The notes under the pieces are model-generated. The model saw only the letters and a list, made by a program, of their open reading frames with translations. It made no database searches and had not been told where the DNA came from. Below, piece after piece: positions 6,291 to 25,212 of a DNA stretch of 64,000 nucleotides. Position 1 is the first letter of the stretch; every line of letters starts with the position of its first letter. Position numbers and translations under genes: made by a program. Location: assembly GCF_988243305.1 (NCBI RefSeq), contig NZ_OZ547136.1; one strand, 5' to 3'.

Positions 6291-6327
6291 AAACCGCGCC
6301 ATGTCTGCATATGGCGCGGTTTCTCTT
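6291..6327 (+). terminator. intrinsic terminator downstream of betT
   Basis: Perfect 11-bp stem aaccgcgccat / atggcgcggtt with 8-nt loop, followed by tctctt, 14 nt after the betT stop. Confidence 0.7.
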
Positions 6328-20443: not shown

Positions 20444-21407
20444 ACTGAAAAAACGCCATGAATTCTGGCTGGCATTACTGATTGTGGTGCTGTTTGTTGG
20501 CCTTGCCTGGCGCAGCGACGAGTTTCTGACATTCGGTAATTTGTACGATCTCGCCAATAACTATGCCATGTTGACTATTCTCGCCTGTGGTTTGTTTGTG
20601 GTGTTGATTTCCGGTGGAATTGATATTTCGTTTCCAGCAATGACCATCATTGCCCAATACGGCATGGTGCTGTTGCTGCAAAAAATTGGTGGCAACTTCG
20701 CTGTCGCGTTTGCCCTGGCGGGCGGCATCGGCATTTTACTTGGCTTAATTAACGCCTTACTGGTTAATCGCCTACGGGTGCCTTCTATCATCATCACTAT
20801 CTCGACGCTGAATATTTTCTATGGCCTGCTGTTATGGTTGAGTAAAGGTGTGTGGCTGTACGACTTTCCGCCGTGGTTTGAGCAGGGGGTTATGTTGTTC
20901 AAGTACACCGATGCTGATGGCTATGACTATGGCCTTGGTCTACCGCTGATCGCCATGATTACGGTGGTGCTGCTAACAGCGTTTATCATGAATTTCACCA
21001 GTGTAGGGCGCAAAATTTATGCCCTTGGCGGGAACCGCGAATCAGCCAGTCGCATCGGCTTTAGTGTGCTGAAACTGCAACTTTTCGTCTATGGCTATAT
21101 GGGATTGATGTCTGGTGCTGCGGGTGTAGTGCAGTCGTGGACGGTGATGACTGTCGCCCCCGATTCTCTTCTGGGTTATGAGCTGACAGTACTGGCTGCG
21201 GTGGTGCTTGGCGGCACTAGTTTGCTCGGCGGGCGCGGCACGTTAACCGGTACTTTGCTCGGCGTGGTGTTGTTGGCAGTGATGCAAAACGGGCTAAATT
21301 TATTGGGAGTCTCGTCTTACTGGCAAACATTGATCACCGGCATCATCATCGTTGCCAGCATTAGTGCCACGGCGTGGAGTCAGCATCAGAACCGGAGTCT
21401 GCTATGA
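20436..21407 (+). CDS. sugar ABC transporter permease
   Basis: 323-aa multi-TM ORF; start overlaps ATPase stop by 8 nt. Confidence 0.85.
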   Translation: MAELKKRHEFWLALLIVVLFVGLAWRSDEFLTFGNLYDLANNYAMLTILACGLFVVLISGGIDISFPAMTIIAQYGMVLLLQKIGGNFAVAFALAGGIGILLGLINALLVNRLRVPSIIITISTLNIFYGLLLWLSKGVWLYDFPPWFEQGVMLFKYTDADGYDYGLGLPLIAMITVVLLTAFIMNFTSVGRKIYALGGNRESASRIGFSVLKLQLFVYGYMGLMSGAAGVVQSWTVMTVAPDSLLGYELTVLAAVVLGGTSLLGGRGTLTGTLLGVVLLAVMQNGLNLLGVSSYWQTLITGIIIVASISATAWSQHQNRSLL

Positions 21408-22360
21408 AAAAATCGTGGCGTAACAACGTTGAGTTTTACTTGATCGGCCTGCTGGTGCTAACTGTTGCAGCCTTCAGCATTACTATGCCGGAGATTTTCT
21501 GGTCGATAAGTAATTTCCAGTCCGTCGCTTCGCAAATGCCCGTGCTGGGCATTCTGGCGTTGGCTATGGCGGTGACCATGCTTTGCGGTGGCATTAACTT
21601 GTCAATTATAGCCACTGCTAACGCCTGTTCACTGGTGATGGCGTGGGTGGCGACTCAGTATCCACCGGGTATTGCTACGGTTGTCGCTACGCTGCTGGCG
21701 GGCGCTGGCGCGGCGGTGATAATCGGTTTATGTAACGGCGTATTGATTGCTGGTATTCGAGTGTCGCCAATTCTTGCAACACTCGGGATGATGACGTTGC
21801 TCAAAGGGGTAAATATTCTGGTGACAGGCGGTAGCGCCATTGCCAATTATCCCTCATGGGTGCTGTGGTTGAATCATGCACAGTGGTTCGGTGTTCCGCT
21901 ACCGATGTGGTTGTTTACCGCAGTGTCGCTAGGGCTGTGGATATTGCTGGAGAAAACGCCGCTCGGTAAATCCATTTATCTGATTGGTTCTAACGAACGA
22001 GCAACACTTTACTCCGGCATTAACACTCGTCGGGTGCTGATTTGGGTGTATGTCATTTCCGCCTTGCTTTGTGCGGTAGCGGCATTTTTGATGATGTCGA
22101 AACTCAACTCGGCTAAGGCCTCTTATGGCGAATCGTACTTGCTGGTGTCAATCCTCGCGGCAGTACTCGGCGGGGTTAATCCGGACGGCGGCAGCGGGCG
22201 GATAATTGGTATGGTGCTGGCGCTGTTTCTTCTGCAAATTATTGAAAGCGGCTTCAATATTCTCGGTATAAGCCCCTACCTGACGATGGCCTTATGGGGA
22301 ACGTTGCTGCTCTGTTTCATTCAGGCTCGCGGCATGTTGGGGCTGGATCGGGTGGTTTAA
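21404..22360 (+). CDS. sugar ABC transporter permease
   Basis: ORF 21374..22360; ATG at 21404 (MKKSWRN) overlaps upstream stop as ATGA, ggag 6 nt upstream. Confidence 0.82.
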   Translation: MKKSWRNNVEFYLIGLLVLTVAAFSITMPEIFWSISNFQSVASQMPVLGILALAMAVTMLCGGINLSIIATANACSLVMAWVATQYPPGIATVVATLLAGAGAAVIIGLCNGVLIAGIRVSPILATLGMMTLLKGVNILVTGGSAIANYPSWVLWLNHAQWFGVPLPMWLFTAVSLGLWILLEKTPLGKSIYLIGSNERATLYSGINTRRVLIWVYVISALLCAVAAFLMMSKLNSAKASYGESYLLVSILAAVLGGVNPDGGSGRIIGMVLALFLLQIIESGFNILGISPYLTMALWGTLLLCFIQARGMLGLDRVV

Positions 22361-22446: not shown

Positions 22447-23496
22447 ATGAAGATCAAAGCTGTTGGTGCATATTCCGCTAAACAACCACTTGAACCGATG
22501 GATATCACCCGGCGTGAACCGGGACCGCATGATGTCAAAATTGAAATCGCTTACTGTGGCGTCTGCCATTCCGATATCCACCAGGTCCGTTCCGAGTGGG
22601 CGGGGACGGTTTATCCCTGCGTGCCGGGCCATGAAATTGTAGGGCGCGTGGTAGCTGTTGGTGATCAGGTAGAAAAATATGCGCCGGGCGATCTGGTCGG
22701 TGTCGGCTGTATTGTCGACAGTTGTAAACATTGCGAAGAGTGTGAAGACGGGCTGGAAAACTACTGTGATCACATGACCGGCACCTATAACTCGCCGACG
22801 CCGGACGAACCGGGCCATACTCTGGGCGGCTACTCACAACAGATCGTCGTTCATGAGCGATATGTTCTGCGTATTCGTCACCCGCAAGAGCAGCTGGCGG
22901 CGGTGGCACCTTTGTTGTGTGCAGGGATCACCACGTATTCGCCGCTACGTCACTGGCAGGTCGGTCCGGGTAAAAAAGTGGGCGTGGTCGGCATCGGCGG
23001 TCTGGGACATATGGGGATTAAGCTGGCCCACGCGATGGGGGCGCATGTGGTGGCATTTACCACTTCTGAGTCAAAACGCGAAGCGGCAAAAGCCCTGGGG
23101 GCCGATGAAGTTGTTAACTCACGCAATGCCGATGAGATGGCGGCTCATCTCAAGAGTTTCGATTTCATTTTGAATACAGTAGCTGCGCCACATAATCTCG
23201 ACGATTTTACCACCTTGCTGAAGCGTGATGGCACCATGACGCTGGTTGGTGCGCCTGCGACACCGCATAAATCGCCGGAAGTTTTCAACCTGATCATGAA
23301 ACGCCGTGCGATAGCCGGTTCTATGATTGGCGGCATTCCAGAAACACAGGAGATGCTCGATTTTTGCGCCGAACATGGCATCGTGGCTGATATAGAGATG
23401 ATTCGGGCCGATCAAATTAATGAAGCCTATGAGCGAATGCTGCGTGGTGATGTGAAATATCGTTTTGTTATCGATAATTGCACACTAACAGACTGA
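22447..23496 (+). CDS. yahK: Zn-dependent alcohol dehydrogenase / aldehyde reductase
   Basis: 349-aa ORF; GHEIVG and CxxC zinc motifs; synteny. Confidence 0.93.
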   Translation: MKIKAVGAYSAKQPLEPMDITRREPGPHDVKIEIAYCGVCHSDIHQVRSEWAGTVYPCVPGHEIVGRVVAVGDQVEKYAPGDLVGVGCIVDSCKHCEECEDGLENYCDHMTGTYNSPTPDEPGHTLGGYSQQIVVHERYVLRIRHPQEQLAAVAPLLCAGITTYSPLRHWQVGPGKKVGVVGIGGLGHMGIKLAHAMGAHVVAFTTSESKREAAKALGADEVVNSRNADEMAAHLKSFDFILNTVAAPHNLDDFTTLLKRDGTMTLVGAPATPHKSPEVFNLIMKRRAIAGSMIGGIPETQEMLDFCAEHGIVADIEMIRADQINEAYERMLRGDVKYRFVIDNCTLTD

Positions 23497-23531
23497 AAAA
23501 ATTAATAAATATCCTGTGGTTTAACATATTA

Positions 23532-23573
23532 ATTTCGCTCTCCACTTAACTTTTTAGTTAAGGAGAGCGAAAT
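23532..23573. terminator. long palindrome downstream of yahK (terminator or binding site)
   Basis: Perfect 12-bp arms atttcgctctcc / ggagagcgaaat around an 18-nt loop; no clear T-run. Confidence 0.4.
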
Positions 23574-23738
23574 AATATCAAAGTAGCAGTAAAACCTATA
23601 ACGTAAATTCAAATTGTTAAATTAACTCCCTCCAGGACACAATACTTCACACGTTAGTTATGAGCGATTTCTGATAGTGCATGGTTTAATCAGGGCTTTA
23701 TTATCTGCGACGTTTATTTTTATTTAAGAGAGATCGCG

Positions 23739-24554
23739 ATGATATCATTAAAAGCTCCGCACAATAATTTGATGCCATATACGCAACAAAGCATACTTAA
23801 TACAGTAAAAAACAATCAGTTACCAGAGGATATCAAAAGCTCCCTGGTTTCCTGTGTCGATATATTCAAGGTTTTGATTAAACAATATTATGATTATCCT
23901 TATGATTGTCGTGATGATTTAGTCGATGACGACAAACTCATTCATCTCATGGCTGCCGTACGAGACTGTGAGTGGTCAGACGATAACGCACTCACCATAA
24001 ATGTGCAGTTTAATGATTTCCCAGGATTTTATGACTGGATGGATTACCCTGATCACCCGGTTAAGTTTGTTTTTCGCATACTTGAAAATCAAAAAGGGAC
24101 AGTTTGGGTATATGACCAGGATGATGCGTTTCTTGATATTAAAGCAAATGTGCAGGCTGGACGCTTTACCGGGCTTAAGAAATTAGTGCAGTTTATCGAT
24201 TCAGTGCGAACAGATTGCAAATGTATTCTTCTTGAACACCATATGCCTTTGCTGAGACTTTTCCCTAAAGGGAAAGAGTGTATGCATGTGGAAAAATGGC
24301 TTCGCGAAATGTCGTCTATTCCGGAGACCGACGCACCCATTAAGCAGGCGCTTGCGCATGGATTATTATTACACTTAAAAAATATCTACCCTGTTTTTCC
24401 TGAATCACTGGTGAGGTTATTGCTCTCTGTTCTGGACGTAAAAACATACAGAGATGATGCGCGATTAAATCAATGGATATCTAATAGAGTCCAGGAATTA
24501 GGTGACAGATATTATCCTGTAAATAAGCACGTTAAAATCCGCTACACTCTTTAG
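23739..24554 (+). CDS. yahL: uncharacterized protein
   Basis: 271-aa ORF in AT-rich low-GC context; synteny. Confidence 0.8.
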   Translation: MISLKAPHNNLMPYTQQSILNTVKNNQLPEDIKSSLVSCVDIFKVLIKQYYDYPYDCRDDLVDDDKLIHLMAAVRDCEWSDDNALTINVQFNDFPGFYDWMDYPDHPVKFVFRILENQKGTVWVYDQDDAFLDIKANVQAGRFTGLKKLVQFIDSVRTDCKCILLEHHMPLLRLFPKGKECMHVEKWLREMSSIPETDAPIKQALAHGLLLHLKNIYPVFPESLVRLLLSVLDVKTYRDDARLNQWISNRVQELGDRYYPVNKHVKIRYTL

Positions 24555-24966
24555 TTCAGAAAGGGTTCCACCTGCGAGTTGTTATTCCACCAGAGAGTGA
24601 ATCGCAAAGCAGGTAATCATTTCATCTGTATATCCGTATGCCAAATGGCATTCCACCGCCTTTTTCGCCGATATTTTGTTGTGATCGGCGACGCTTCGCT
24701 TAAAAAAGCATCAGCAGTGGTTTCGCAGCTATACAGTGTATAAAAAATGATCTCATGCAGATGTTTTGTGAATGTGTGGGTTGACATTCATATGAAAAAA
24801 ATCATAATTCCATCATGTTTGTGTGGGGTCTTTTCTGTATCTTACGCATCGCACTCAAGCCTGACAGAAAATATGCTGTAAGGCTCATATCAAAAACCGC
24901 CATTAGCTCATCAGGAAGAGCAGACGACAACCAGGATTGTTGTATGGTACGGGGTTCGAGGCCTCG

Positions 24967-25212
24967 ATGGCGGTCCAACTTTTCATAACTCTTCTGAATC
25001 AGATCCCCTTATTATCATCCCTGCAAAGTGGAACATTGCCATTGTTTGGCTATTCAGGACGGGTCAGAGCAATGAAAAAAGCCCACACAGGGGAGAGTGG
25101 GCTGAAATGGGAAGCTAAAGACTCAAGTAAACTTATCGGAAATAAGGACCACGCATTACGGGGGCTATCATCGCCGATGGTCGGGATTCGGCAAATCAGG
25201 TTGATTACGTAG
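24967..25212 (+). CDS. yahM: small uncharacterized protein
   Basis: ORF 24937..25212; ATG at 24967 gives MAVQLFITLLNQ, 81 aa; synteny. Confidence 0.65.
   Translation: MAVQLFITLLNQIPLLSSLQSGTLPLFGYSGRVRAMKKAHTGESGLKWEAKDSSKLIGNKDHALRGLSSPMVGIRQIRLIT

Follow-up and report, generated by a model that had tools for sequence, protein, structure and literature searches.

In a canonical intrinsic terminator, a U-tract with 5 or more U in 8 nt starts within 0–2 nt of a G+C-rich hairpin, and the RNA 3′ ends in E. coli lie 7–9 nt into that tract. Palindromes can also be shaped at the level of DNA: the correction of quasipalindromes by replication template switching is a known mutational mechanism, and hotspots of this kind are reportedly described by the Ripley model and in reporter studies that the Lovett laboratory carried out in E. 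coli. A third group of elements is defined by RNA. Dar and Sorek (2018, Nucleic Acids Res 46:6797; PMC6061677) found that Rho-dependent transcripts have precise 3′ ends directly after stable stem-loops that lack a U-tract, and that C exceeds G downstream of such stems. They also presented evidence that PNPase and RNase II are stopped by these stems once Rho has terminated transcription diffusely at points further downstream. Here we examine a long palindrome between yahK and yahL of E. coli, which in our judgment is probably an ordinary stem-loop of this third kind, protecting the 3′ end of a Rho-terminated yahK mRNA whose ends have been trimmed to the stem.

The DNA analyzed is a stretch of 64,000 nucleotides (contig NZ_OZ547136.1 of RefSeq assembly GCF_988243305.1), which we call the window and whose numbering is used throughout unless MG1655 (NC_000913.3) is named. 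All features of the locus described below are on the plus strand. yahK, encoding an NADPH-dependent aldehyde reductase, occupies 22447–23496 (open reading frame list; RefSeq annotation of the MG1655 and VCSW5 loci), and the low-G+C gene yahL, which would receive any read-through, follows at 23739–24554 (open reading frame list, RefSeq annotation and G+C content). The original prediction gave the palindrome the coordinates 23497–23738. These delimit the entire yahK–yahL spacer; the palindrome does lie inside, at 23532–23573 (MG1655 343969–344010). Its description as perfect 12-bp arms around 18 nt that are themselves partly self-complementary is borne out both by a repeat finder and by folding. 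The outer arms are ATTTCGCTCTCC (23532–23543) and GGAGAGCGAAAT (23562–23573), a perfect 12-nt inverted repeat with its halves 18 nt apart. Within those 18 nt, TTAACT (23546–23551) pairs with AGTTAA (23556–23561) around a TTTT tetraloop (23552–23555), so that inner stem and loop together span 23546–23561, and AC (23544–23545) provides the only bulged nucleotides. The whole is a hairpin of about 18 bp with a 2-nt bulge; the stem is A/T-rich, with G-C pairs at 7 of its 18 positions. In the minimum free energy structure, the base is extended by a weak helix consisting entirely of A-U pairs, formed by approximately 23526–23531 (AUAUUA) with approximately 23573–23578.

Folded as RNA, the 56-nt hairpin segment has a minimum free energy of −24.8 kcal/mol (plus strand) or −25.0 kcal/mol (minus strand). 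Shuffled 56-nt controls average −4.7 kcal/mol, which places the hairpin at z = −9.6, and none of 200 shuffles was as stable. Inverted repeats that are perfect over 12 nt or more, with loops of 3–20 nt, occur at 3 loci in the 64-kb window, as against 0.09 expected from dinucleotide shuffles; besides the yahK–yahL palindrome, these are the intrinsic terminator at 6291–6322 and the palindrome near frmR at 59466–59508, both described below. These numbers confirm that the yahK–yahL palindrome is real and non-random.

The MG1655 annotation has no feature between yahK and yahL, and the small open reading frames that run across the hairpin are only 23–27 amino acids long, with non-ATG starts. A search of Rfam at E ≤ 10 returned only chance-level matches (for example, to plant miRNA precursors) and no family for the hairpin. 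The arm sequence has no further occurrence within the 64-kb window, and 5088 of 5426 complete E. coli genomes carry one hairpin locus each (median 1 place), which is the conservation across strains that the original prediction had proposed to check. Where a genome seemed to have a second place, this was a self-match of the palindrome to the other strand, an artifact that doubled the count when the perfect allele served as query; apparent plasmid copies were K-12 F-prime plasmids or chromosomes mislabelled as plasmids. A dispersed intergenic palindromic repeat such as REP/BIME or ERIC, which should be present in many copies, was rejected because the element occupies a single locus and belongs to no Rfam family.

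The hairpin was also compared with intrinsic terminators. The DNA after the stem, AATAATATC, contains 3 T in 8 nt with no run longer than 2, and the same holds for U in the corresponding RNA tail, AAUAAUAU (3 U in 8 nt, no more than 2 in a row). A terminator scan of both strands returned 0 sites at the hairpin. With no U-tract and no scan site, a canonical intrinsic terminator was set aside, and the earlier statement that the absence of a T-run argues against a classical intrinsic terminator agrees with both tail composition and scan. The same window does contain a true intrinsic terminator at 6291–6322, AAAACCGCGCCAT-GTCTGCAT-ATGGCGCGGTTTCTCTT, which contrasts with the yahK hairpin in that its perfect 12-nt arms are followed by a T-rich tail.

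Published maps of RNA 3′ ends contain this position. In supplementary file 1 of Adams et al. (2021; PMC7815308), Term-seq gives a plus-strand 3′ end at MG1655 344013 in LB at OD600 2.0 (average read count 1132) and another at 344011 (count 745) in a later sheet that we take, as the caption implies, to be M63 glucose; both are classed as “orphan” because their distance from the stop codon exceeds 50 nt. The TRS re-analysis of the BW25113 Term-seq data of Dar and Sorek has a plus-strand terminus at 344007–344015, with a dominant position of 344012 and a signal of 0.98; the terminus reaches significance in each of three replicates and is assigned to yahK as “Primary.” Thus, in two laboratories, two K-12 strains, and three conditions, the mapped ends (344011, 344012, and 344013; window 23574–23576) lie 1–3 nt past the last base of the stem, and the check by Term-seq that accompanied the original prediction finds yahK-strand ends in three data sets. 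Neither the Adams nor the TRS tables list minus-strand 3′ ends at the hairpin. The Adams Term-seq set from LB at OD 0.4 has no 3′ end called at the hairpin, which counts against the explanation we favor. A promoter scan found no promoter-like site between yahK and the hairpin or near the hairpin; because none separates the gene from the hairpin, we argue that the ends belong to the yahK mRNA. These ends define where the yahK mRNA stops and give the gene a 3′ UTR of ∼78–80 nt (23497–23576, from the end of the stop codon at 23496 to the mapped ends), composed of a 35-nt A/T-rich leader and then the hairpin.

The same ends could, in principle, be true termination points if the long hairpin released polymerase without a U-tract, possibly with NusA or NusG, as a non-canonical intrinsic terminator. 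Relatives of yahK outside E. coli bear on this possibility. The closest non-E. coli YahK clusters that we compared have 91, 89, and 87% identity, and the 3′ flanks of these genes are not homologous to the E. coli spacer. One relative (L094) has an ordinary terminator, a hairpin followed by a T7 run (GGCGTATAGCG-GCA-CGCTATACGCC-T7); in the flank from Salmonella bongori (L095), a hairpin is followed by no more than a short T-rich stretch; and the 91% relative (L093) runs straight into another open reading frame. The matches listed in a wider contig search with YahK, none of them from Escherichia, are relatives in other genera with 62–89% identity and unrelated flanks. The hairpins of L094 and S. 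bongori indicate that a hairpin at the transcript end is an expected feature at this position, whereas the A/T-rich spacer with its U-less hairpin, starting right after the yahK stop codon, appears from these comparisons to be specific to E. coli. A strong hairpin 35 nt past the stop codon, sharp 3′ ends in three data sets, and terminator-type hairpins at the same relative position in two relatives are all what a non-canonical terminator would predict. However, the ends lie 1–3 nt past the stem and not 7–9 nt into a U-tract, the tail and the scan are as described above, and the region has been called bicyclomycin-sensitive, although by a low-resolution score. We therefore regard termination at the hairpin itself as quite unlikely.

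The bicyclomycin result comes from supplementary file 2 of Adams et al. 2021, where DirectRNA-seq with and without the drug gives a Rho termination region that peaks at 344049 on the plus strand (window 23612), with a Rho score of 3.61 (p = 1.8e-5) calculated from 800-nt windows with few reads. Upstream and downstream of this position there are 32 and 24 reads without bicyclomycin, and 83 and 225 with it. The upstream reads thus rise too, and the downstream rise could reflect de-repressed promoters in the spacer or in yahL instead of read-through from yahK. The score peak falls within a C-rich, G-poor tract of 78 nt (23577–23654) that starts 4 nt past the stem and has 18 C versus 8 G; its C/G ratio of 2.25 is the top of the spacer scan. 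Composition and the position of the peak together make this tract a candidate Rho-utilization region, and it may well contain the rut site. An 11-nt deletion (CCTCCAGGACA, window 23629–23639) that is common to the yahL-less B2-type strains removes part of this candidate Rho-loading sequence.

These data are best accommodated by the protective stem-loop that we favor, which would operate as follows. The palindrome would be transcribed as the final segment of the yahK mRNA and fold into the ∼18-bp stem-loop. RNA polymerase, not released there because no U-tract follows the stem, would pass the hairpin and continue into the A/T-rich spacer. Rho would then load on the C-rich, G-poor RNA just 3′ of the hairpin, and termination would occur before or within yahL. 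The ragged tail would be trimmed by 3′-to-5′ exonucleases, which in the published model are PNPase and RNase II, through the weak A-U pairs at the base, until the enzymes stall at the G-C-containing stem and leave a sharp, stable 3′ end 1–3 nt past it. The ends at 23574–23576 would thus arise by trimming and not by termination at the hairpin. When the RNA is trimmed to the mapped 3′ end, the A-U extension is gone at a cost of only ∼1.5 kcal/mol, and RNAs of all five alleles described below, trimmed to +2, retain −19.0 to −28.7 kcal/mol. The hairpin would in this way define and protect the 3′ end of the yahK mRNA, probably raising its stability, and, with Rho, would separate yahK from the low-G+C yahL–yahM segment.

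A stable stem-loop in the 3′ UTR, a 3′ end at the stem, no U-tract, and an excess of C over G downstream are the features of the Dar and Sorek class, and all four are present at yahK. The original prediction had offered an RNA stability element as one possibility, which the Term-seq ends 1–3 nt past the stem and the nearby Rho region support. A literature search yielded nothing specific on yahK/yahL regulation, ProQ, or bicyclomycin, and no data turned up on RNase III cleavage of the ∼24-bp helix, which we also considered. The yahK hairpin is most likely an individually undescribed member of a well-described class, whose 3′ ends are already in public tables, and this reading accounts for a Rho region in those tables and for a Term-seq peak that they class as “orphan.” More generally, a palindrome without a U-tract after an E. 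coli gene should be taken in the first instance for a stem that blocks exonucleases on a Rho-terminated transcript, and not for an operator.

Natural variation in the hairpin provides a second line of evidence. We counted alleles as records in the band of at least 99% identity, among 5090 E. coli records that carry the region. The commonest, by far, is the MG1655-type (MG1655 and O157; 3951 records, −22.9 kcal/mol), in which C replaces T at 23533 and creates a C·A mismatch at position 2 of the arm. The E2348-type (E2348/69 and Nissle; 547 records, −21.2 kcal/mol) has the same C, and its 5′ arm is 2 nt shorter (ACTTCGCTCCAC). In the U12A-type (U12A and WP4-S17; 404 records, −30.2 kcal/mol), the AC bulge is missing, and the stem is a perfect 18 bp (ATTTCGCTCTCC-TTAACT). 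The allele of the window, shared with VCSW5 and used here as the reference (−24.8 kcal/mol), accounts for 32 records, and the perfect 12-bp arms as seen in the window are therefore a rare allele (32 of 5090). In T-HYM1, read once, the inner stem is TTAATT, and the change of C to T yields a G·U pair (−20.6 kcal/mol). Other variants make up ∼156 of the 5090 records and are counted together. The five alleles that were read thus span −20.6 to −30.2 kcal/mol, and none has a badly weakened stem.

The differences are strikingly one-sided. Among the 11 intact hairpin sequences read, all seven arm or stem differences are in the 5′ half (including those of the outer 5′ arm at 23533, 23538–23539, and 23543–23544), the 3′ arm is invariant in all 11, and several of the 5′-half differences increase complementarity to the 3′ arm. 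The clearest case is the pair of U12A-type and E2348-type alleles, which share the same B2-like backbone without yahL, with 7 differences across ∼540 nt. The 12-nt 5′ arm contains three of the 7 (binomial P = 3.6e-4), and each of the three replaces a mismatch by the exact complement of the 3′ arm; a clustered, multi-base change would have turned an imperfect arm into an exact complement, which is the pattern of a quasipalindrome hotspot. The simplest reading of this change is a single replication template-switch event, that is, a quasipalindrome correction, with the direction from E2348-type to U12A-type assigned by parsimony. Over the allele series as a whole, the 5′ arm looks as if it had been rewritten again and again to complement the 3′ arm, for which replication template switching is the simplest mechanism. 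The series may illustrate quasipalindrome “correction” in nature, and studies of template-switch mutation in population data could use it as a modest test case.

How far selection contributes is a separate matter. Selection on the hairpin structure is plausible from the alleles, but the per-site divergence of the hairpin is about that of the rest of the spacer, and conservation of the structure could therefore reflect homogenization by template switching instead of selection. Taken to its limit, this argument would make the element a quasipalindrome by-product in an A/T-rich, horizontally acquired spacer, perfected by template switching and without selected function, with the block to exonucleases being incidental. 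The similar substitution density, the confinement of all seven differences to one half with all three clustered ones restoring complementarity, the lack of a common flank in yahK relatives outside E. coli, and the toleration of IS1 and IS2 insertions in or beside the hairpin are each consistent with such an origin. Such an origin is also compatible with a protective stem-loop, because the RNA ends are present whatever the origin. Against a complete lack of function, even the weakest of the five alleles read still folds at −20.6 kcal/mol, and the C-to-U change of T-HYM1, which template switching would not yield, keeps pairing as G·U. On balance, we think an element with no selected function improbable.

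The alleles also bear on the suggestion in the original prediction that the palindrome could be a protein-binding site, where a dimeric regulator or a nucleoid protein would bind the DNA dyad and control yahL or the yahK/yahL boundary. A long intergenic dyad upstream of a silent, low-G+C gene could serve this purpose, and a second perfect palindrome of the window, in the frmR promoter region, indicates that operators of this size occur. But the geometry would be unusual, with half-sites of 12 nt whose centers are 30 bp apart and a second dyad inside, and the yahL start is 165 nt downstream of the element, which has no promoter-like site in its vicinity. Moreover, one arm has indels or mismatches in ∼99% of records, whereas no change was seen in the other arm in the sequences read. 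An RNA helix tolerates the loss of 2 nt or a mismatch on one side, but in DNA such changes put the two halves of a dyad out of register, and, similarly, the G·U variant spares the RNA helix and breaks the symmetry of the DNA. The hairpin also persists in strains without yahL. We found no binding data for it in the literature, and the RNA polymerase peak seen in genomic SELEX is inside yahL. These one-sided changes and the G·U variant favor an RNA helix over a DNA dyad, and we consider a protein-binding site very unlikely indeed. A transcription-factor operator was likewise rejected as a class, as neither a conserved two-sided dyad nor a promoter position was found.

The palindrome near frmR lies at 59466–59508, in the frmRAB promoter region, and has perfect 16-nt arms (ATACTATAGGGGGGTATGC … GCATACCCCCCTATAGTAT). 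It is ∼35–75 nt upstream of frmR (minus strand, ∼59161–59436) and resembles the operator described for FrmR. As for the SELEX peak, RNA polymerase holoenzymes with sigma-28, sigma-24, and sigma-32 bind strongly inside yahL (intensities of 27.1, 17.8, and 5.6, respectively; PMC5493296), at MG1655 ∼344436 (343660 in older coordinates; ∼24000 in the window), within the gene and not at the hairpin, which suggests promoter-like A/T-rich sequence within yahL.

The hairpin stands at a compositional and genomic junction. G+C falls from 0.50–0.60 in yahK to 0.34 in the spacer and is 0.37–0.43 in yahL, in agreement with the boundary between a typical-GC and a low-GC gene noted in the original prediction. 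Presence or absence of yahL is due to an 835-bp indel (window 23733–24567) of nearly the size of the open reading frame, which takes in 6 nt ahead of the ATG and 13 nt beyond the stop codon. In the yahL-less B2-type strains (E2348/69, Nissle 1917, U12A, and WP4-S17), TTTAAGAGAG is joined to CCACCTGCAAG with no flanking direct repeat. These strains keep the spacer and the hairpin, and a Shine-Dalgarno-like AAGAGAG is left behind. Directly upstream of yahK, ABC-transporter permease genes are found in the window (21374–22360 and further upstream) and in VCSW5, and yahI–yahJ occupy that position in MG1655 and E2348/69; the 5′ neighborhood of yahK is thus variable, too. Insertion sequences have landed in or beside the hairpin (equivalent to window 23550–23580) in independent strains: IS1 inside the loop in SCAID WND1-2022 (L088, ∼1486–1501) and IS2 5 nt past the stem in A134_1EC (L092, ∼356). 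In PSS-08-1, an IS3-family element stands in place of yahK and most of the spacer (L004, 1681–2909). Further downstream, the current MG1655 annotation contains xtpA (b4845, “putative transcriptional regulator”) at 345252–345434 (L001, 4253–4435; ∼24815–24997 in the window), which lies between yahL and yahM and overlaps the yahM start. For this area, the published tables give 345390 (+) as a 3′ end and 345585 (+) as the position of a Rho region, and a literature search found no paper on xtpA.

A more far-reaching proposal would be that selection maintains the hairpin and the Rho site together as an “insulator” where a core gene meets a silenced island of xenogeneic DNA, setting the leak from yahK into yahL–xtpA–yahM, with its strength tuned in populations by one-step template switches. 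The perfect 18-bp allele (−30.2 kcal/mol), which is present in ∼8% of sequenced genomes, in a B2 sub-lineage without yahL, would be an example. We consider this extension of the protective stem-loop rather unlikely. If true, it would provide a natural, datable case of template switching creating or maintaining a functional bacterial RNA hairpin.

In comparison with known systems, the yahK hairpin resembles several in part. Like canonical intrinsic terminators, it closes a transcription unit and gives a precise RNA 3′ end; unlike them, it has no U-tract, its end is at the base of the stem and not in a U-run, and its stem is not G+C-rich. Like REP/BIME and ERIC/IRU elements, it is intergenic, transcribed, hairpin-forming, and potentially able to stabilize the upstream mRNA, but it is single-copy in each genome, with an arm unique in the window and no Rfam match. 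With quasipalindrome hotspots, it shares clustered changes in one arm that create perfect complementarity at once (E2348-type to U12A-type), although here the process is read from natural alleles (404 and 547 of 5090 records) and not from new mutations. The closest relatives are the stem-loops of Dar and Sorek (PMC6061677). Relative to these, the yahK stem is of unusual length and almost without defects in pairing (18 bp, or ∼24 bp if the A-U extension is counted), is A/T-rich, and stands at the junction of a core gene and a low-G+C island, and the role of PNPase and RNase II here is one that we infer. But, as in that class, the stem follows shortly after the stop codon, lacks a U-tract, has RNA ends 1–3 nt away, and is followed by sequence in which C exceeds G; read-through downstream may likewise be bicyclomycin-sensitive, as judged by a low-resolution score.
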